This document shows, one piece after another, positions 16,601-60,680 of a stretch of 64,000 nt of DNA (position 1 is the first letter of the stretch; every line of letters starts with the position of its first letter). The stretch spans positions 1,922,001-1,986,000 of the forward strand of contig CDPCPM010000418.1 of NCBI GenBank assembly GCA_976551045.1, written 5' to 3'. This stretch comes from Glaucostegus cemiculus. Taxonomy: Eukaryota. The notes under the pieces were generated by a model that saw only the letters and a program-made list of their open reading frames with translations, ran no database searches and was not told the DNA's origin. The translations under genes were made by a program, and so were the position numbers.

Positions 16601-19600
16601 TGCCCCAAAAGCGCCAGGCCATGACTATCTCCAACATGAGAATCTAACCATTTTGACATTCAACGGCATTATCATTACCAAATTTCCTATTGTCAACATC
16701 TCGGGTGGTAAGGGGTATATGAGAGAAGAGCAGGGACTGGGTATCCTAGGGCAAGCATCTCAGCTCTTGACACTCTAAAGACTTAAGGCATAAGTCAGAG
16801 TGGTGGAAGACGCATCACTTGCTTGGAAGGGTGGAGCTCCAACAAGAGTCAAGAAACTCAACACCATCCAGATAAATCAGCCCACTTGAGTAATACTCCA
16901 TTCATCACCCTAAACATTCAGTCCACCCAACACCAACATATTGTGGCTGATGCACCATCTACATAATGCACTGCAATTACTCCTTAGGCTACTTCACAAC
17001 ACATCCAAAACATTCAACTATGACTACTGAGAAGGACTTCAGGCATATGGAAACACCACTACATGCATGTTTCACTCCATGTTGCACAGCATCCTATCAT
17101 GAAAATGTATCACCATTCCTTCATCATCATGGGTATAAATACTGGAATTCCCTATTTGGCAGTACTTCAGGAGTATCTTCACCAGAGTGATTCAAGGCAG
17201 CAGCTCGCCATCACTGGGCAATAACACTGACTTGGCCTTGGCACTGACACCCAGATCCCAAATAAAGATTTCCAGTCACCTCTTTACAATGCTGGTTAGC
17301 CATGGCTAGACTAGATAGGCTGCTCTGAGATGAAGTGCATTCACATGAGGGACAGAGATCAGGGATGTGTTCTAAGTGTTACTGACAGCAGGTGTATACT
17401 CCCTTCTGTTCATTTTCCATATTTGACCAGGCAAGGATGCAATTAAGGTAGTGAATGAATGGGAACTAAATGTCCAAGCCAGGATGATATGGACTTGGGA
17501 GGTGATAGTTTGTCCTATGCATCTGAAGCTTTGCACTCCTGGGTGACAGCATTTGTGTATTGAGTTCATCTCCATTCCTGACTCTTGGTGGAGTGGAGCT
17601 TTGATACTGGGCTCACAAATGGTTTCTATAACACTGAAAAACCTGCATGTCATGGACATCAGAGAGTTGCTGAGTCTCCTGCACTCCCTCCATTCACCAG
17701 AGGTCCAGTTGAAATCCCAAGATCTTTTAGGTCTTGGGATTTCAACTGGACCTCTGGCTTCTGGTGCCCATAAAGCTATTTCTTTTCACTTGAGAGGGTG
17801 GAACTTCTAGTCTAGGAATGCCTTACATTTGCAGTAGTTTAAATGCAAACATAAGCATCCACACCATTCTGCTTTTCCCTTACGGGAATGGTTTTGGTAA
17901 CATCAGTGCCAGCTGTATCCACATAACCAATCTTCTTTTCCGCTTCCCTTTTTCTCAACTCAACCTCTTCCGACCAAGATACAGATGGTGTTAGCCTCTG
18001 TCTCTTATTCCGTCCCCAAGGGGCAGAGACCGTTGGGAGCTTGAGTATTTTCCCACCCCTTCTACCCATCAACATTTTTCCTGTAGGATGTCAGGTCAGC
18101 TTGCTGCTACCCATACTGGAAGCAACCAATTCAAGTTACATACTTTTCCCCCTCTGAAGCATTTTCCTACCTGGGCACATGGCATTGAGCTGAGCATGCA
18201 TTAAGAAAACAACCCTTGAGGTCACTCTGCCTGCTTTTCTCTGACAAAGAACTCAAACGGTTATCTAAAGTCATGACAGCAGAGATGATGTCACTGAGCA
18301 CATCAAGTCTGTAGCAGTTCTCTGCAGAGCAATCAAGTCAATGCTACTTCTCAAAATTCCCCAGCAAAATTGATACCTTCAAACATTTACCCAATTTCCC
18401 CTTGAAAGTCATAACTCAACTTCTGTCCACCATACTTTAGGTGGTGCAGGACAGATCATAACTACCTCATGAGCAGTAAGGTCACTCGTGGATCTTGTAA
18501 CATTCATTACCTCCTTTGGTCCTCCAACATTATACTAGTGAGATTAATTTCATTCTTAAACATGCAATTTCAATAAAAAGATCGTCCCATAAGCTCTTCT
18601 CACCTTGGTGAATCAGAATCCTGGTGGGAATCTTCATGCTGTTGCTCATCAAGTTCCATAGCATCTTGCACTGTTGCCTTTATTCTTACAGGAACAGAAC
18701 TGAAACAATATTAAATGTTACAATCAGGGGACAGTGTTGTCAGCAGATTTATTTAACAGAGTGACAACAGCATTAAGGCTATCAAACTTGCTTCATGTGT
18801 CATCACATTGTTCTTGTGTGATCATAAATTTTAAAACTGTAGCCTCTGACTATGCCATTCCTGCTAATTCAATTATTTCTTGCTTATAAACAATATTTTC
18901 CCAATAATTTGTAACAAATAAATTACATTATCTGAGATAGGAGATAACATTCTGCCAAACCAAAAAATAACACCTCTGAATTTTGACGATTCCCATCATT
19001 AGGTAGCTGGTAGGTTCCAATCAGATATCTGTCCAGAAATGAGATGAGTAACTACTTCCAAAATGCCCTCTCTCTCCATTGATTTTTGGTTCTAGAAGAA
19101 CCTCATATAGAAGTACTCATGTTAGCTGAGAAAAATGAACACATAATGGATGCAAGCTGAAGAGCTTTCAGTTGAACTTTTGCTTAGATCAATTTGCAAT
19201 TCACTGCTACAATGCTCCTATTCAAAATCAGTTCACCAGATGCCAGGAAAGCTCATTCAGTTGATGCACTTGGTGGTGAGAAAATCAAAAATCTTTCAGC
19301 AAAGAGCAAGCCTGGGAGAGGCATGATGTGTGGGCAGCTGAGATTAACATTAAGTTAACAATACTGCCTCTATGAATTTTAAATCAATTTTTACTCAAAG
19401 ATATATAATACTTCAAGTAACTTGAATTAAGCAATTAAAAATAACCATAAAGGATTTTTTTGTGCAAGATTTCAATTCAACTACATTTAAAATAAAAATA
19501 GACTGCTTGGAGATGAAGAAGAAAAAAAAGACTAGATCAAAAAATATATTTTGTAGACAAGAAGATTGAGGGATATGAGAAGTGCTTATTATTTACAAAA

Positions 19601-25600: not shown

Positions 25601-28600
25601 TTCACAAGAGAAACTAGAGTATGAGTGAAAACATATTTTAGTTTCCAGTATCCTAAAGTGCATATTAAGAATCATCTCAAGAACAATTAAAATGTATAAC
25701 ATTTTAACAATAAATTATATTGCCATTATAACCAGCACTGCAATTCAACAAAATCATGGGTGATCCAATTGTGGGCCTCAACATTTTCTACCTTAGTCCT
25801 ACAAACTTGGAATTCCCATGGTCCAATATTCTAAGCCTATTTAATGGTGCATATCTTTCATGCCAAACAATCTAAATAGAGAAATTGCAAGAGTGGAGTT
25901 CTGGTTCATGAAAAACAAAAAGTTAGCATGCAGATACAGCAAACATTTAAGACAGCAAATGGTACAGTGGCTTTAAAAATAAAATTAGAGAAGTGTTGTT
26001 CTGATTGTACAGGGTATTGGCAAGGTCACACCTGGAGTACTCAGTACAGCTTTGGACCTCTAATTTAAGAGCCAGCATTGGAAGCAATTCAGAAGAGATT
26101 TAATCAACTAATTCCTGGAATGAATATGTTGTCCTGTTGAAAACAGCTCAAAAATGTTAAACCTGTATTCTTTGGAGTTTGAGGTGTGTCTAATGAAAGA
26201 TATTAGATCCTCGGCAGGAGAGCATGGCAAGAGAGATGCTGACACAGAGTCTCAAATGAGGAGACATAATTATGAAGGCAGTCATTTACAACGGAGGTGG
26301 GTATAAATTTCTTCTCACAGGTGGTAAAACTCTGGAATTCTTCACCCCAGAAGGCTGTCGAGGCTCTAACAGGGGAGTTATTTGAGGAGGTAGATACATT
26401 TTTGAAAGATCAGAGAATTGAGGGCTTTGTGGAACTACCACAGAAGAGGAGTTGAGCATTGGGCCAACTCAGTCATGATCATATTGGAGGCTGACTTGAG
26501 GAGGTAAAATGGCCAACTCCTGCTCCTATTTTCTTGTACGTTCCTGTGTGCGCGCAAGGCAACAGAGATACCTGGTGATGGAAGGGGCCTTGATCCTGTG
26601 TTAGTGGATCGGCGAGACAGGGAGAAACTAGATATTTGAGTTCTATTTCCTGGCTGCGATCTAGGAGGTATTGGCCCAGGTCCATGAGAGGCTGGATGGC
26701 GATCTGGCATTTCTGATGAACCTGTGTTTTGATTCTCTGTTGTGTCAATTTCTGTCAAAGAGAAAGAGAAACCAAGTCAGTTATTAGCATTTGACCAAGG
26801 GAAATGGAACACTGCAGGCTCATAGAATGAAAGAGCAAAGAATGACGCCATCTTGACACACAGCCCACCTGAGTTTTAGAAGTCCATACTCTCAATGCAT
26901 TGTTTGATGGAGGTAAAGATCCTCCATCAATCTAGATATATCATTACAAATGACAGCACTTCTGAAAGGTAAAGATCCAAATTTCCCCATGTTAGCCACA
27001 CTTCTGAACATAAACAGTGGAATTTCAATGGACTGATAGGAGGAGTAATACTGTCTGAAATTAGACCCTTCGGCCCACTGAATCCAAGCTGATTCTAAAA
27101 GAACCATTTATACCAATTCTACATTAATCCCATTTTATTCTCCCTACATTTTGATCAACTCCCCACAGATTCTGCCACTCACCTACGCTTCAGGGGACAT
27201 TTTACTGTGGCCAATTAACATTCCAACCCTCACGTAGGAGGAAACAGAAGCATTAGAAAGAATGAAAACCCAATGATGCTGGAGGAACTCAGCAGGCCAG
27301 GCAGCATCCACGAAGAAGAGTAGGCAGTCAATGGTTCAGGTCAGGACCCTTTTTCAGGACCTGCAGCATCATCATGCTTTTCATCTAGACTCCAGCATCT
27401 GCAGTCCTTTGTTTCGCTAGCATCATGAGGAAACCCATACACAGGGAGAACATGCAAACTCCACACAGCCAGCACTCAAGGTCAGGAAAGAATCAAGATC
27501 ACAGGCTCTACTAGCTGTGCCACTGTATCACTTCTAGCTACAGAAACATGAACTCTACATCAGATTTTGACTGTTACTTTCCTGGAAAATTCTATATTCT
27601 GAGCTGGTGCTCTGCATTCAGTCCCTGGATGTCCATACATTTTAGTACAAAGTAGCATTGTAGATAGTGCTGCTGACACACAGCATCAGCTACCCGGATT
27701 CAAACCCTATCCTGGGTGCTACACACAAAGTGCTGAAGGAACTCAGCAGGTCAGGCAGCAGCTATAGAGGGAAACGTCGACTGACCATTTCCCTCCATAG
27801 ATGCTGTCTGACCTGCTGAGTTCCTCCAGCACTTTGTGTGTTGCTCCAGATTCCAGCATCTGCAGTCTCTTGTGTCTGGGTGCTGTCTGTTTAGAGTTTG
27901 CATATTCTCCCTATGATTACGTGTGTTTTCACGAGTTTCCTCACACATTCCAAAGGCATGAAGGTTGGTTGGTTAATTGGCTTGTGTACATCACCCTTGG
28001 TGTAGGTGGGTGGCAGAAGAATCACAGCAGAGTTAATGGGCACGTGAGAGAATAGATTATAGAGAACTAGGTGAGACCAATAGGATTGATCTGAGAGCAA
28101 TGAGTTGAATGGCCTCCCCATACATTGCAAGAAATTACAATGTGAAAAATGACGTCTGCCTGCAAAAATTAGCTACAAAACTATGAGAGGGCCTGAAGGA
28201 GGCTCCTGATTGCAGAGAGAAACAAGGTACATGTATTAAAAGTAGTCACTCCAGTGTTTTGCACACATTTTGACAATTGAACTAATTTTCAAATTTCTTA
28301 ATTTATTGTGCAAAGTAATTTGATGTACTCAGTTTACAAGGCCACAATCAAAATGAATTATATCTTGCTTAATGCATTAACTTTTGTTTTCACATTCCCT
28401 TATAACAAAGGGTATTCAAGTGCCTGAGAGGTTGAACAAAGTTTTTCTGTGTGGGCAAAAGGTACCTTTAATGCTGGAGTCATCAGTATGCATGACGATC
28501 AGTCACATTATCCTACTGGACACACACGATAGTTTGGAGCAGGATGTGGAAGAGGAAAGATGGCCCAACTCAGCCAGGAATATAAGGGATTGCTGGGGGT

Positions 28601-40600: not shown

Positions 40601-43600
40601 GCAGCCAAATGTTTTGCACGGTGGTGCACATGACCATTTTCATTCAGATTTACAATGCTGACAAAAGAGAAGCCAGCGAGCCTTACTTTGAGGCATCCTG
40701 TGACTCTGAACAAGAAGAAAACACTGAAATGAACCAAGAAAAATAAACCACTGCTCTAAGAATTGGGGAATTAAATCTAATTTTAATATAGCATTAACAG
40801 TGTATTTGAAGCATTGTCACAAATATTCCATACTGTCAATGTCTACAACATTCAATCTGCATTCCTGACCCCATTTCACATTCAAATCTACAATCCTGCC
40901 TGTGCCTGACTAAAATTCAATCTGCATTTCTGTGCCACACTGGGGTATAGAAAGGCATTCCTCTGAGTGAAATTCCAATTGTCATTCCAGTCCCACTACC
41001 CAGCAGAAGATCCAACATCCCTGTCCTCAATCCTGAGGCCAATTTCCATTATTGTTCCATTTTAAGATACAGAAGTGCATGCCTGTCACTGACTGAGGCC
41101 TCAATTTCCATTGTCCACGTTCCTGATTAAGATTCAAGTCTGTCACCCTGTCCCTAGCTAACACCAGTAGAATAGTACAACACAGGAACAGGCTCTTTGG
41201 TCCACCATGTCTGCACTGACCATGATGCCAATCTAACTAATCCCATAAAACTGCTTATGATCTGTATCCCTCAATTCCTTGTGTTATGTGTCTGTCTTCA
41301 TGTATATTAAATGTTGCTATCATATCTGCTACTACCACCAACCCTGGTAGTGCACTCCAGGTACCTACCACTCTATGATTAAAAAACTTGCCTTGTTCAT
41401 CTCCTTTAAACTTTCCTCCTCACCTCAAACCGATGCGCACTAGTATTTGATATTTCCATCCTGGGAAAAAAGATTCTGACTATCTAACCTATCTATAGCT
41501 CTCATAGTTTTATATACTATTATCAGATTACCCCTTAGCCTCTGATATTCCAGAGGAAACTGTCCAAATTTGTCCAACTTCTCCTTGTAGCTAATACTCT
41601 GCAGTCCAGACAATATCCTAGTGAACATCTTTTGCACTCTCTCAAAGCTTCCACATCCTTCCTATAATGTGGTGACCAGAAATGCACACAATACTTCAAA
41701 TGTGGCCTGACCAACGTTTTACACAGCTGCAAAACAGCTTCCTAACTTTTATACTCAAGGCCCTGACTGATGTAGACTACCATGCCATATGCCTTCTTAA
41801 CCACCCTATACAGTTATGTTGCCACTTCCAGGGATATATGGACTTGCACCCCAAGATCCTTCCATATATCGATGCTCCTAAGGGTCCTGTCATTTACTGT
41901 ATACTTTCCTCTTGCATTTGACCTCCCAAAATGAAACACCTTACACTTGCATGGATTCAATTCCATCTGCATTTCTCTGCCCAAATTTCCAATTGATCTA
42001 TATTTTGCTGTATCCTTTAACAACCTCCCTCACCACAACTCCAGCATTGTTTGTGTTGTCTTTAAATGTACTAATCAGACTATCTACATTTTCATCCAAG
42101 TCATTTATATATTACAAGCAAGAGGTTCTAGCACTGATCCTTGTGGAACCCCTGATCACAGACCTTCAATCAGATAAACTTCCTTTCACTGCTGCGCTCT
42201 GTCGTCTATGACCAGGCCAATTTTGTATCCAACTTACCAGTGCACCATGAATCCCATGTGATTTAATCTTCTGGGCCAGCCTACCATGAGGGACCTTGCC
42301 AAATGCTCTACTAAATTCCATGTAGAAAAAATCCACTCTCCTACCCTCTTCAATTATTTGTCACTTTTAAAAAAAAATTCAAATCAAATTTGAGAGACAG
42401 GACCTCCACTGAACAAAGCCATGCTGACTTTCCTTAATATCCATGCTTTTCCAAACTCAAGTAAGTCTTGTCCCTAAGAACCTTCTCCAGTAATTCCCCT
42501 ATCACCAACATAAGGCTCACTGGCCTATAATTTCCAGGCTTGTCCACATTGTCCTTAAACAGAGGAACAGCACTGGCTAATCTCCAGTCTTCTGGGACTT
42601 CACACGTGACTAAAGAGGATACAAAGTTTATGGTCAAGGCCCAAGTAATCTCTTCCCTTGCCTCCCTCAGTATCCTGGGATAAATTCCTTCAGGTTCTAA
42701 GGACTTATCCACCTTAATGTTTTTTCAAGAAACCTCCTCCACCTCAATATTGACATGCCCCACAATATCGATGTACCCCTTCCTGATCTCATCATCATCT
42801 ATGTTATTCTTCTTGGTGAATACCGAAGCAAAATACTCATTTAGGACCTCACCCACTTTCTCTGGCTCCAGCCACAGTTTCCCTCCTTTGTCCTTGAGTC
42901 GACTTACCCTTTCCCTAGCCACCCTCTTGCTTTTAATATACGTATAAAATGCCTTGGGATTCTCCAAAATCCTACTTGCCAAGGACATTTCACGGCCTCT
43001 TTTAGCCCTCCTAATTACTTATTTAAGTTCTTTCCTGCTTCCTTTATATTTTCATCGAGGGCCTTGGTCAATTTCAGCTTTTTAAACCTTACATATGCCT
43101 TTCTCTTTTTGACTAAACTTACATCTCTTGTCATCCAAGGTTACTGAACATTGTAAGGGAGGCAACACACTACCCTGGAATCTCACTCACAGCCACAGGA
43201 ATGCTTATCTGTGCTCCTGACTGCAGAGTCCCCCATCACTAGCACTCGCAAACATTTCAACCCTCCCTGCTGAATAACAGAGCCAGTCGTGTTGCCACTG
43301 ACCTGGCTGCCACTGCGTTCCTCTGAGAGAGCATCCCAATAGTATACAAAAGGTTAAGTACAAACCAGTTCCTGATTACAAAGAAAATATAGCTCAGAAA
43401 TAGACAGAGCAATGAAATAAATCTATGCTGGTGTAAGTCTCCTCCCATTCCATCCACATCTTGGACTTCTAGATTCTTGATTCAGACCCACCTGGTTATC
43501 AAATTAAAACACTTATGTTTACATTTCTAAGAGTCTATCTCAGATTTATGTTTGTTCTTATTCATAGTTGAGATTCAAATCGTCATTATTGTCCCAACTA

Positions 43601-52600: not shown

Positions 52601-55600
52601 ACTTGCTGAATGTCATGTCCGTCAACAGTGACACAGTAATCACACAATTTAATCAGTGAAAATGACAATAATGACAAACTGATTTCAATTTTCAGAAGGT
52701 CACAAGTGTATCTTCCAGTTGCTCACATTTTAGGCAATGAGCAACTGTCGACACCAATCAAACCACAGATCTCAGTCTTTCATGTCAGTTTTCCATCCAA
52801 CTGTATTTCCCATCACCTTACAATTCATGCACAGTGAAGTGCAGAATCAGGCTCATCCATGATTACCCTGCCTTGGAATGGCCTGGCATCTCTCCAGCTC
52901 CTCAGGAGGTAGGCAATGCTCAGAAGGACAACCCAAGCCTCTGAAACTAACCTGAATAATGAATCAAAACCAAGAAAGGAACTGGAAGAATTAGCGTCTA
53001 TTGGAATGCCAGTGCCAAAGATACGCAAATTATTTATGTGACTTGCGGAACTTTCTCCCAGACCTCATTCGCTGGATCCTTTCCTCTTCCAGGTAGCAGC
53101 TTTAAAGATGAACCAAAGCCATCTGAAGAGACTTCCAACTATAAATAGTCTCTGGATTGCCATTTGGCTTCCACTAGAACTTCAGTATTTTTCTTGTCTC
53201 TACGTGGCTTAAAATGAGATTTTTTTAAATAGCTATCACCTGCATGTTTCTATGACAGACAAAACATCTAATAGAGTAAGCTAACGTAATTTTGTAAAGC
53301 ACAAGATCCCTCCAACCTCACCAAATACTTAAAAGGTATGGAGTTCAGTATGCCCATGACTCCTAACCTTAGCAATCACAATTTTGTTTTAATATATAAA
53401 AAAGAGTTAATTTGTAACCCGACTAAAAATCACATCCTCAGTGAACCTTCATATAATACCATTTGTTGTCTTAAAGGACTTTTCACTCAAGAACAGAATT
53501 TTCCATAACAGTACAAGTCACTTCCCTGATATACATCATCTAATTTGCTGTAAGCAAAGCTTTGTTAGAAATCTCTAATTCATTGTTTCTAAATTACTTT
53601 TCCTCAATTGCTGTATTATAACTGGTACCCAGTAATGTTCACTTTATTATAACTGGTACCCAGGAATGGTAACCTTGATAAACAAAATAATCATGCATGC
53701 TTACCTTTATCAAAAAGCTTTGCACATTCATGACATAAAGAAAAATCATGTGACCACTGTGCATCCCAGCCTTTCCCTGGCGTTGTAGCTCCACAGCTCT
53801 TACATCGTACACATTTGGTGCATATCTACAGCGGAGGAGATCTTTATTAGAAAACATTAAGGTTGTGTCAAATTAAAGCAGAAAATGACAGAAGTGAGCA
53901 GAGCATCACTCATCTGAAGCGGACTAAAAAAGATGGTGACATCTAAAGGATAAAATCTGTTCTGATAATAAATGCAAACTAAGATGTTAGTCTTCATCTT
54001 TCAGATTCTGCTTGGCTTGCTGTGCATTTTCTATTTTCAGTTCAGATTGCTGGATTTTTCTTTTATATCTTTTTAATAAATCTTAAACACATACATATCT
54101 AGAACTTTAAACCAAAGCCAGAGGGGTTATCGACCTCTCTTCCCGTGCCTAGTCAGGAAAGCAATGCTAGAAATCCCTTTGAGTTCTAATCGGATCCTCA
54201 AACTCTACCAGCATTTAGTGAGGCTTATGTACTTATGTACTTATCAAGTTCTTTGCTTGTTAGATAATAGCTACAGCAAACTAAGTTAGCTCACCCTCCA
54301 ATTTTTACATTCAGTAAAAATAAGCATTGGCAGGCTTGGTAGTTCACCCTATGGAAATCTATAGAAGCAGTTGTTATTCAGCTGTACATTACATGAACAC
54401 ACCCACAAAATGCTGGAGACACACTATGTCTCCAGACGCTCAGATTCCAATATCTGCAGAATCTCGTGTCTCCGTTTTGCTGCTCCGCTGCGAAGTCTCT
54501 TCAAGGTATGCCTACCCTGAAGTTGTTTTCCTCCTCTCTTCGACAGGGGTTCTCTGAGGCCCTCTCTCACTGCTCCCACTGTGATCTCTGCTGCTCTCTA
54601 ACTCCAGCATATTGTGTGTGTTGCTCCAGATTCCAGCATCTGCAGAATCTCATGTCTACATGAACACACCAATGTGTTGCTTCACTATGCCCTTAGTTAA
54701 TTGATTTGGTCCCATAGAAGTAACAGAAAGAATCTTACTGGTAGTTGCAAAAAGAAACCTGGTCTCAACTTGCTCACGCACGGATGAAGAGAAAGAAGAT
54801 CAGTACAATAATAAGTCTACAGACATGAAGATAACAAAGCAGAATCTTTATCCATTGGCAACAGAAATGGAAATACGTGGAAAACCAAAGCGGGGGAGGG
54901 TGGGGTTTAGATGCTTGAGAAGGAAGAGTCAAATCAATGCTCTTTTAAGTATTAAAGAGACTTGAATGAAACTTTCCTCACCAAGAGCCTGAGCTGATCC
55001 TGCTTCATGTATTCATAAACTACATTAAATTATTCAAATTAGGTTTACTTGATTAGCATTTCTTGAAGATGTCTCAAATACTCACTTTATCTTATCTATG
55101 TACATTCCACATTAAAATAGATAGAGGCAAGTAACAGACAGGTCATGTTATGAAGGTATTAAACAGAGATAAGATAGTCACAACTTTGCCTGAATTAACA
55201 AAACTTACCCAGACTTTCTTTTTCTTAGTTGGTTTTGTTGGGTAGTTTGGTCCCAGGCACTCTGGATGATAGCTGTTTCGGCACTTGCCACACTCAAGAA
55301 GCTGCTGTGTTAAAAGAAATATTTTAAGAATTGATATTTTTCTTTTGATTCAGCACAAGAAACTAATCATTCAGATCCTTTCCCTTCCTTATGGAAATTC
55401 TCCATTACTTAGTTCCACTTACAATCCACTTTCATCTTCATTAACATAAAGCTCACTCTAAAATTAACCACCTCAAAACGAATTAAAAAAAAACTAATAT
55501 TTTGAGTGCAAACTCCTAAATGGAAATGGTGTGGGCAAGCACTACAGCTCTTTAGAAAACAAGCCAAGCAATAAAGGAGCATTGAAAATCATAAGAAAGT

Positions 55601-58600
55601 CTAGTTGAACTAATTTTACCTAAAAAACACATTGGTGCTATATAGATAATACATTAATGCAGTACACCATGGTAAAACCATAGGATAAAACTCATTCTCT
55701 TTAATCAGATGTACTATAACACTCAATTTACTGATTTCAGCTGGGCCTTACTGAAGAAATTGTACAGAGAAGTGCTTCCCCAGGCAGACAGAAATTTCTA
55801 GGGTTTGGCACCTTTTGGCCTTGCCCTTCAGTAGCAACAGCAGATACTGAAGACAGGTAATTCTCCTGAAATTTCCAGAGCTGATGTTCACAGCACATGT
55901 TTAAATGTAGCTCATTATCCTGATTCACCATAGCATACTACATTAATGTACTATCTATATAGCACCAATGTGTTTTATAGATAAAAATGGGAGAAAAATA
56001 CATATATTTTGCAATTCCAAATATTTACCAAAATAAATGCTGCTGAGAGAAACTGATGATTTTTCTTGTGGGGGGAGGGGCAGGGACAGTTGAGAAGGCA
56101 GGAAGATATCCAAATAAATGTGAGGTTCGATTAAGGTTTAATTTCTGATTACTGTGTCTTATTTTAAAAATGTTAAAAGTCTTCTTAGTGACACATTTAC
56201 TCCATTCTTGTAGTTAGTGTAATGTATATGAAGGAGGGACTAGGAAAAGGATAACAATCCAAAATCGTATCAGTACCAGTACAGCAGAGAATGAAAATCT
56301 TTTTTGGGATCTCCCACTCAAGTTTAATTTCATAGGCAATTCTAAATGATGAATTAAGTCGGTATAAATTTTGTACTACTCTAAACACAATGATTCATCT
56401 GAAATTTCAAACATAGCCCATTATCTGATACCGTTACCTTTGAGGATTTATTTTGACGGCAACAAACGTGGCAAAACTTGCAGCGCCGGCAACACCAGTT
56501 CTCCCACTGCTCTTCCAGGGGACGCTCACTTTCCTCCAGGCAGAAAAGGTGGAAGGGTTCGCAGCATACCTGACAGTAAATAAACTGCAAGGAATTGAAA
56601 TGGAGAATAAATCAGGAAAGGCCACACTTGAAACAAAAACAAACTACATTGATACAGCACCCTTCACAATATTATTCATAATATACCTGTTAAGATGGTT
56701 CACTGTGAGAAATAAGGTCAATTCACACACAGTAAATTCCCTCAAACGTACGACTGTATGTTCCAAACATATAATCCATTTTAGAGATAATGACTGAAAG
56801 GTAGATATTGACTGGGGAATTGCATTGCAGTTCTTTCTCAAAATAGTGCTCTGCCATACTTTACATACACTCAGGTATAAACAGGACATCATTTTAACGT
56901 CTCATCCACAAAAAAAATCTCCTGACAGTATAGCATTCCCTCAAGTGCTATATTGGTGTGTCTGTTCAGGGTCTGCATCCAAATCCATGGAGAAGGATTT
57001 GCAGAGGACATCCTGACTCAAAGGTAAACACATTACCACTGTGCAACAGCTTGAATTAAGCAGTCTTATTTAGCATTATTGCAAGTACCACAGCGTAGAT
57101 AGATATTCTGGTGTGCACACCATTGTAAAGTCCATTGTGAAATCTACAGATGATAACTGTCAGATTTTTATTCTCCTATGCAATTAACACTTCAAACGTC
57201 ATGTAGCACCAGAGAAGTGTACATCAGGTTAAGAGAAATCAACAGCTTTGTTGGTTTCTCATGACCATTTCTCTATATTTTTCAATGCTTCCAGTAAATT
57301 TAAACATTCTTTTCTGAACCCTCACATTCAAATTTGCCTTATACCTGTTTAAACCAAAAGACCTAATAAGCTGTAGTGAGATTCCTCTAAAACTCAATTT
57401 TGAGAGATGCCCTCTCAAACAGAGGTTTGCTTCTGTCAATGCACTGACTAATATCTCATATCAAATCCAAAGTAATCTGCAATTAAATGAACATACGCAG
57501 GAAACCATACCTCAACATGTCCACTGCTGGCGCAGAGGAAGCACACCACCCTGGGAGTGATGGGTACAGAAGTCAGGATGCTAAGTCCACCCATTTCCCA
57601 CACATTTTCCACATCACAGTCCTCCTACAAAGAGTCAGTAGAATTATATCAAAAAATAAACAGCAAAATTCAATTACTCTTGTGGATCAGATTCAATTAA
57701 AGCTTTGCAAATATTGCTTCAAGTACTGGAAGGTTAGATCGCATGGTAACCAGGGACAGATAGCTAATTGATTCATAATTGACTCGATGGTAGGAAGCAA
57801 GAGCATGATAGATGAAGGCTGTTTCTCAGACTGGAGGCCTGTGACTAATGGTGTGTCACAAGGGTCGGTGCTGGGACCTTTGCAATTCGTTATTTATATA
57901 AAAGATTTGGATGTAAATGTACAAAGCATGGTTAGTAAGTTTGGGGAATTACACTGAGATCGTGGTATCGTAAATTACAGGGGGATATTGATCAGTGAGC
58001 TAAGTGGACAGAGGATTGGCAAATGGATTTCAATTTGGATCAATGCAAAGTGTTGCATTTTGGGAAGTCAAACCAGAGTAGAACCTATACTGTGAATGGT
58101 TGGGTCCTGGGGAGTGTTGTGAAACAGAGGGACCCAGGAGTATAAGTACACTGTTGGCTGAAAGCAGCGTCACAGGTAGACAGGGTGGTGGAGAAGGCAT
58201 TTAGCACACTGGCCTTCATTAGTCAGGGCAGTGAATACAAGAGCTGGCATACTATGTTGCAGTTGTACAAGACGTTGATGAGACCACAGTTGGAGCACTG
58301 TGTACAGTTTTGGTTGCTCTGTTATAGGAAAGACATCATTAAACTAGGAAGAGTGAAAAACAGATTGATGAAGATGTTGCCAGGACACAAGGGTCTGAGT
58401 TATAGGGACCTGACGGGTAACTTCTTCACACACAGGGGATGCATATCTGGAATGAGCTGCCAGAGAGAGAGATTGAGGCAGATACAATAACAACACTCAA
58501 AAGACATTTGGATGTGCATGGATAGGAGGCGTTTAGAGGGATATGGGCCAACTGCAGGAAAATGGGACTTTCTTGGTGGGCAGCACAGTCAGCATGGACA

Positions 58601-60494: not shown

Positions 60495-60680
60495 AACAAA
60501 CAGCTAGGAATTCAGCAGGTTGAGCAGCATCTCTGGAGGCCAAAGGTATAGTCCTGATGCAGGGTCACAACTCAGAATGTCAACTATCCCCTTGCCTTCA
60601 CAGATGCTGTTCAACCTGCTGAGTTCCTGCAGCTGTTTGGTTCTTGCTCCAGATTCCAGCATCGGCAGACTCATATCTCC
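60495..60680. mobile_element. Penelope-derived foldback element
   Basis: Inverted arms ggaattcagcaggttgagcagcatct / agatgctgttcaacctgctgagttcc and the shared ttgctccagattccagcatc terminus. Confidence 0.7.

Follow-up and report, generated by a model that had tools for sequence, protein, structure and literature searches.

The pre-mRNA of KMT2A in the ray Glaucostegus cemiculus is predicted to fold into a long hairpin between the exons that encode PHD1 and PHD2, and nearly all mismatches in its stem are G-U wobbles on the transcribed strand only. The duplex is real and, on present evidence, lineage-restricted. It is new as an instance and belongs to a known kind; a search of the open-licence literature returned no paper on it. 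Whether the duplex has been selected for a function of any sort seems to us about an even question. The specific reading that we tentatively place first, at somewhat less than even odds, is that a repeat recovered in one copy only has been kept paired by weak selection and may mask cryptic splice sites, thereby letting the PHD exons join cleanly. All weightings of this type are matters of judgement and were not computed. Throughout, the window is the whole 64,000-nt stretch that was analysed, and coordinates refer to it.

The host gene and its intron

KMT2A, the gene that hosts the predicted hairpin, lies on the minus strand. One of its exons matches the human MLL1 PHD3 structures (E = 5e-23). 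Its large exon shares 88-90% identity with KMT2A from rays and skates (77% for one further ray entry), 75-82% with that from sharks and 62% with that from a chimaera. Mapping a stingray protein onto the window yielded 25 introns. The intron of concern (55305..56437, minus strand; 1133 nt, GT-AG) separates a 147-nt exon for PHD1-PHD2 (56438..56584) from a 96-nt exon for PHD2 (55209..55304). We call these exon 11, intron 11 and exon 12 after the presumed RefSeq numbering, the window being without the first exons of the gene. The 96-nt exon has a tandem CAG/CAG acceptor (55299-55307), whose additional Gln is kept in 112 of 120 related proteins and absent in 6. Both bony-vertebrate loci described below share this acceptor.

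Several other features were observed in the window. In a KMT2A intron at 17697-17757, a nearly perfect hairpin of 29 bp is closed by a loop of 3 nt; it has a template-switch or miRNA-like shape and no Rfam hit. Head-to-head pairs of a dispersed repeat form intronic hairpins of 54 and 35 bp at 27715-27847 and 60497-60639, and pieces related to that repeat occur at 27277-27337 and 54602-54660. Decayed intronic fragments resembling a reverse transcriptase of LINE type, recognized from open frames and an inverted match, lie at 41656-43018 and 57815-58487.

A 63-bp inverted repeat predicted to pair best in the sense RNA

The two arms of the repeat, 55614-55676 and 55924-55986, are 63 nt each and align without gaps. 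Their 55 Watson-Crick pairs include a perfect 25-bp core (55624-55648), and the remaining positions are a single A/A mismatch (55623/55977) and seven A/C pairs (55619/55981, 55649/55951, 55660/55940, 55665/55935, 55666/55934, 55668/55932 and 55674/55926), with no G/T pair on the plus strand. On the minus strand, which is that of the KMT2A pre-mRNA, all seven A/C pairs become G-U, and 62 of 63 positions are predicted to pair. The geometry, the absence of plus-strand G/T and the conversion to wobbles are exactly as the original prediction had described them, base by base. Chance is excluded as the source of the repeat by its BLAST score within the window (E = 2e-15), and none of 100 shuffles contained two matches to a 22-nt core.

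In the pre-mRNA, the 5′ arm of the stem (55924..55986, minus strand) begins 451 nt past the exon-11 donor, and the 3′ arm (55614..55676, minus strand) ends 309 nt ahead of the exon-12 acceptor. A contig from one read set, X1, which may derive from the source sample itself, represents the same sequence and is identical over 55782-56080 (0 differences), and the right arm is therefore confirmed letter for letter.

The sense strand is predicted to form an unbroken helix of 53 bp, in which most pairs have a probability near 1. When the window was folded in 1.1-kb tiles, neither strand gave a longer helix, the runner-up being 34 bp. When both strands were folded, as had been proposed, the sense strand proved far more stable over 55600-56000 (-156 kcal/mol, z = -12.1) than the antisense strand (-122.2 kcal/mol, z = -7.4). 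For the arms alone, the duplex energies are -88.1 kcal/mol sense and -63.0 kcal/mol antisense.

The excess of sense-strand wobbles

Seven of the eight mismatches are G-U in the sense RNA, which has a probability of 0.0013 under either the window's own mismatch spectrum or the substitution spectrum of a relative (X2, below). Given a mutational bias of 58:42, the probability of at least seven in eight is 0.003, and at 70:30 it is 0.012. These are post hoc values: the repeat was picked from 7 local ones here and from an unknown number of windows. In simulations of the neutral decay of a perfect 63-bp repeat, the observed gap of -25.1 kcal/mol between sense and antisense was reached in 1, 1 and 9 of 1500 runs.

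One way to obtain such a pattern without selection would be transcription-linked mutational asymmetry, with A>G and C>T changes on the sense strand producing the wobbles. A mild asymmetry of this sort does exist, as is evident from the ratios of G to A (0.70) and of C to T (0.56-0.58) on the gene's sense strand. However, 16 other inverted repeats found by self-BLAST of the window are balanced, with 145 sense G-U, 142 antisense G-U and 198 transversion mismatches, and this argues that general mutational asymmetry is no explanation. The six other local repeats have 7, 10 and 10 such mismatches, respectively. The controls may understate any bias because they are mostly transposon pairs, whose mismatches are partly older than insertion. 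Even so, the 70:30 calculation above leaves the pattern improbable, and we consider asymmetry, which had been offered as an alternative with the original prediction, to be the least probable of the explanations discussed here. The strand bias itself, as first claimed, is real and is unshared by the other inverted repeats of the window.

Additional pairing inside the loop

Inward of the arms, about 35 further pairs are predicted, G-U-rich and interrupted by bulges, between a 5′ segment (55881..55923, minus strand) and a 3′ segment (55677..55726, minus strand). This extension is significant on the sense strand only: the inner 30-60 nt segments flanking each arm, which were cut without regard to strand, gave z scores of -2.5 to -2.8 in the sense orientation (p = 0.012-0.024) and -0.5 to -1.7 in the antisense. 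The entire 247-nt loop is unremarkable (z = -1.36 sense, -0.54 antisense), and the branched domain at its apex (55727..55880, minus strand) belongs to no Rfam family. Rfam covariance models, including those for miRNAs, snoRNAs, scaRNAs and ribozymes, gave no hit at gathering score in the whole window; within 55300-56300 there were four hits with E values of 0.76-5, all far under that score. A reading of the element as a C/D or H/ACA RNA was rejected by eye, there being no proper C box and no hinge. We also discarded a candidate in-frame exon of 54 nt within the loop (55865-55812), because its sites are weak (3.8 and 3.6) and none of 118 motif-bearing proteins has an insert.

Hairpins formed by single arms were considered as an alternative fold; of eight tests, the only notable one was that of the right arm on the plus strand (z = -2.9). 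The right arm consists of two overlapping imperfect palindromes, 55930-55958 and 55952-55983, whose fold is significant on the plus strand only and which may hint at repeated fold-back events.

Comparison with relatives

A second read set, X2, derives from a relative that is about 7% diverged. One of its contigs covers 55335-55936 with 42 differing letters, 38 of which are listed, and another covers 55964-56431 with 30 differing letters. Positions 55937-55963 are uncovered, most of the right arm is unseen, and changes near the ends of the pieces are seemingly unlisted, so that the counts below refer to listed changes (40 of 65 rows). The element is present in X2 and therefore predates the split from that relative.

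Among the listed changes, the left arm has 3 in 63 nt and the flank plus loop 35 in 477 (p = 0.33, at low power); neutral decay predicts 4.6 differences in the arm. One of the three, at 55668, would convert a G-U pair to A-U if its partner is unchanged, and it is the sole listed change in 55627-55676. The other two, at 55622 and 55626 in the outer 13 bp, break pairs unless their partners changed in the unlisted zone. At the edges of the uncovered gap the X2 contigs are clipped, by one base at 55937 and three at 55963, which may reflect further mismatches in the right-arm core.

The interior of the element gives a similar picture. Over 55627-55905, 6 of 18 listed changes disrupt predicted pairing, where the null mean is 7.1 (P = 0.35), and 30-55% of random mutants made with the same spectrum match the inner fold of X2. 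Five changes fall within the 25 visible nt of the 5′ side of the inner extension, and the 3′ side has one substitution and a 4-nt insertion. No compensatory pair is found among the listed changes of this one relative, for which most of the right arm is uncovered or unlisted. A run of few changes at 55627-55748, with 2 in 122 nt, falls short of significance once scanning is corrected for (P = 0.086). We also set aside an apparent compensation in which two substitutions face the 4-nt insertion, as it is equalled by 34% of random mutants. A cluster of five substitutions in 13 nt (55892-55904) faces this insertion, which lies at 55708; the gain in folding is not significant, and the cluster could be a template-switch footprint.

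More distant comparisons came from a query with exon 11, which found two orthologous loci among 253 stretches of metagenome contigs and no relative among 164 stretches of genome contigs. The first locus, L001, is of tetrapod type by its junction peptide (compare P0018-P0020) and has an orthologous intron of about 250 nt. The second, L002, with an intron of about 1250 nt, is probably from a ray-finned fish. Neither of these two bony-vertebrate introns resembles the element in sequence or forms a stem like it, their longest helices being 10 bp in L001 and 15 bp (unrelated) in L002. The L002 intron does carry a 48-nt palindrome (1251-1298 of that stretch), which is unrelated to the ray element and resembles the end of a fish MITE. 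Because the stem is absent from both introns, the link to the human MLL breakpoint cluster region that the original prediction had drawn is one of position only.

Copy number

MITEs are short, non-coding elements with long terminal inverted repeats. The ray element, at 373 nt, is likewise short and without a coding role and has long terminal inverted repeats, and it might thus be one copy of a multi-copy MITE whose ends acquired their bias by happenstance. Unlike a MITE, it has no target-site duplication at the repeat ends, as the original prediction had held and as was borne out when the flanks were read base by base. BLAST and a search for the core pattern found no second copy of the arms in the window, and the core pattern had no match in viral contigs. 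When three read sets (771, 1685 and 610 million letters) were placed on the intron at 80% likeness, 3, 2 and 0 contigs were recovered, respectively, all from this locus. Sampled words of the element occur in only two of the three runs. The lack of a second copy in the window and in all three read sets argues against a young MITE, although such searches lose diverged copies and old ones could be missed. We therefore consider a young or abundant MITE unlikely. The original prediction had named an old MITE as an alternative; we give the multi-copy MITE little weight, if slightly more than mutational asymmetry. Even jointly, these two explanations seem quite improbable.

Splice sites and a possible editing role

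Splice sites were scored with matrices built from the 25 real junctions of the gene, whose leave-one-out medians are 5.9 for acceptors and 7.1 for donors. By these scores, the predicted stem buries three of the 11 cryptic donors in the intron that exceed 3, at 55928 (the best, 7.0), 55667 and 55619, as well as two cryptic acceptors, at 55637 and 55619. At the outer end of the stem (55614..55633, minus strand), a cryptic acceptor and donor stand back to back, with AG at 55621-55620 and GU at 55619-55618, and the G of this GU is part of one of the seven wobbles. The donor here scores 5.8, or 8.5 with the two pair-breaking letters of X2. The scores of this double site are moderate, and 13 of 231 AG|GT sites, this one among them, reach the same level; cryptic donors of at least 5.8 are common, numbering 138 in about 57 kb.

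The donor at the stem's outer end and an acceptor in the loop (55750, score 6.3) delimit a candidate pseudo-exon of 131 nt (55750-55620) that would shift the reading frame and begins with UAA. No in-frame insert is present at the junction of exons 11 and 12 in 118 of 120 proteins, the motif not having been found in the other two; a poison exon would not show in this protein set.

The element might instead act as a landing pad for ADAR, resembling an editing inducer. Under this reading, the stem would recruit the enzyme to a nearby, shorter exon-intron duplex and so favour editing of the PHD exons, as recoding or at their splice sites. The stem is at or above the size reported for known editing inducer elements, 25-54 bp (PMC5654063). 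A weak candidate for the shorter duplex is intron segment 55550-55521, which lies 64 nt beyond the stem and can pair with nucleotides 81-110, in the 3′ part of exon 11. The predicted energy is -30.9 kcal/mol, a value that none of 60 shuffles reached. It may be an editing-complementary sequence, and looping-out by the stem would draw it nearer to exon 11. However, this duplex came first among 10 exon-by-region tests and is missing from the helices of at least 7 bp in a global fold from exon 11 to exon 12, and by our reading one of the two X2 changes within it breaks a pair. Moreover, the known inducer elements are conserved across mammals, whereas the ray stem is not deeply conserved. We regard an editing role of this kind as unlikely.

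Weighing selection against decay

Evidence from within the genome, namely the G-U bias, the sense-only extension and the recovery of only one copy, favours selection on RNA pairing. The comparative evidence appears neutral but is thin, as it comes from one relative and one arm. Of the selected RNA duplex in the original prediction, the strand bias stands and has gained extra sense-only pairing in the loop, whereas excess conservation and covariation, the customary signs of selection, were not seen in the single relative.

If weak selection for splicing is at work, the element probably began as one local inverted duplication, through a template switch or from a long-dead transposon, before the split from the X2 relative. 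Subsequent G-U changes, which preserve pairing on the sense strand, would have been tolerated, and A-C and transversion mismatches would have been mostly purged. The folded stem would remove about 370 nt from the intron, mask cryptic donors and acceptors and block the stop-containing pseudo-exon. The 53-bp helix would also be an ADAR substrate, and its editing would probably be a by-product.

Nearly tied with this splicing role is a neutral history, which we hold plausible at a little under even odds. An old inverted duplication would then be decaying at the intron's normal rate; it would fold and might be edited, but nothing would depend on the stem, and the run of G-U pairs would be an extreme draw that the scan happened to select. 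The divergence between the arms (8 in 63) and between species (35 in 477) fits simple decay, with 3 left-arm differences observed and 4.6 expected. The two pair-breaking changes in X2, the random-like inner domain and the absence of the element in two bony vertebrates also agree with decay. In addition, template switching is described in a preprint as a single-step source of complete hairpins, frequently within introns (bioRxiv 10.1101/2023.04.19.537475). Such a history nevertheless requires an event of probability 0.001-0.01 together with a separate sense-only signal of inner pairing (p about 0.02).

A bolder version of selection, which we think improbable, is an RNA switch of the ray lineage. 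In this scenario, a recently born, G-U-tuned hairpin of 90-100 bp would bury both an AG|GU site and a poison exon in the KMT2A intron that separates the PHD1 exon from the PHD2 exon, and its folding or its editing by ADAR would set the level of full-length MLL1 message. If true, this would be a regulatory duplex caught in the act of evolving out of an inverted duplication.

Relation to known RNA structures

The closest precedents for a splicing role are the PCCRs and the long-range structures active in splicing of PHF20L1 and CASK. Stems of this type are reported to obstruct splice sites, to reduce the inclusion of looped-out exons and to carry A-to-I sites (PMC8052449; PMC10573301). Like a PCCR as described there, the ray duplex lies within one intron, spreads over less than 10 kb (with a loop of 247 nt) and is far below -15 kcal/mol, at -88.1 kcal/mol in the sense RNA. 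PCCRs, however, are defined by conservation over 100 vertebrates (PMC8052449), whereas the ray stem is absent from the two bony-vertebrate orthologs compared, shows no conservation beyond that of its flanks in the single relative and has no annotated exon in its loop. Five supplementary files of that study contained no match to KMT2A/MLL, and its full PCCR tables may lie elsewhere.

Editing inducer elements such as those of Gabra3 and GluA2 have their stems at 32-230 nt from exons in the reported cases (Daniel et al. 2017; PMC5654063). The ray element shares with them a long and stable intronic stem, with 53 unbroken predicted pairs, a few hundred nucleotides from coding exons. It differs in its greater distance from the exons (309-451 nt), in having no known edited site and in an arm that is not unusually conserved at the low power of the X2 comparison given above (3/63 versus 35/477, p = 0.33). 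Among template-switch hairpins, the miRNA-like class described in the preprint has stems of 30-55 bases, unlike the 63-nt arms and 247-nt loop of the ray element, for which no repeat-less ancestor has been reconstructed. A review of MLL fragility places a hotspot at the boundary of its intron 11 and exon 12 and a hairpin in exon 12 (PMC9832561), and none of the features in its available text match the ray element. None of these observations bears on human MLL translocations.

About 5.1 million dsRNAs have been predicted for human, 1,501 of which are called conserved (PMC11838218). If the ray element is neutral, it is one among very many intronic inverted repeats. If it is selected, it would show how an essential chromatin gene can gain a long RNA duplex specific to one lineage and retain it through selection that tolerates G-U pairs. 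In that case, an excess of sense-strand G-U pairs might also be used to screen single genomes for intronic duplexes with a function in lineages where alignments are thin.
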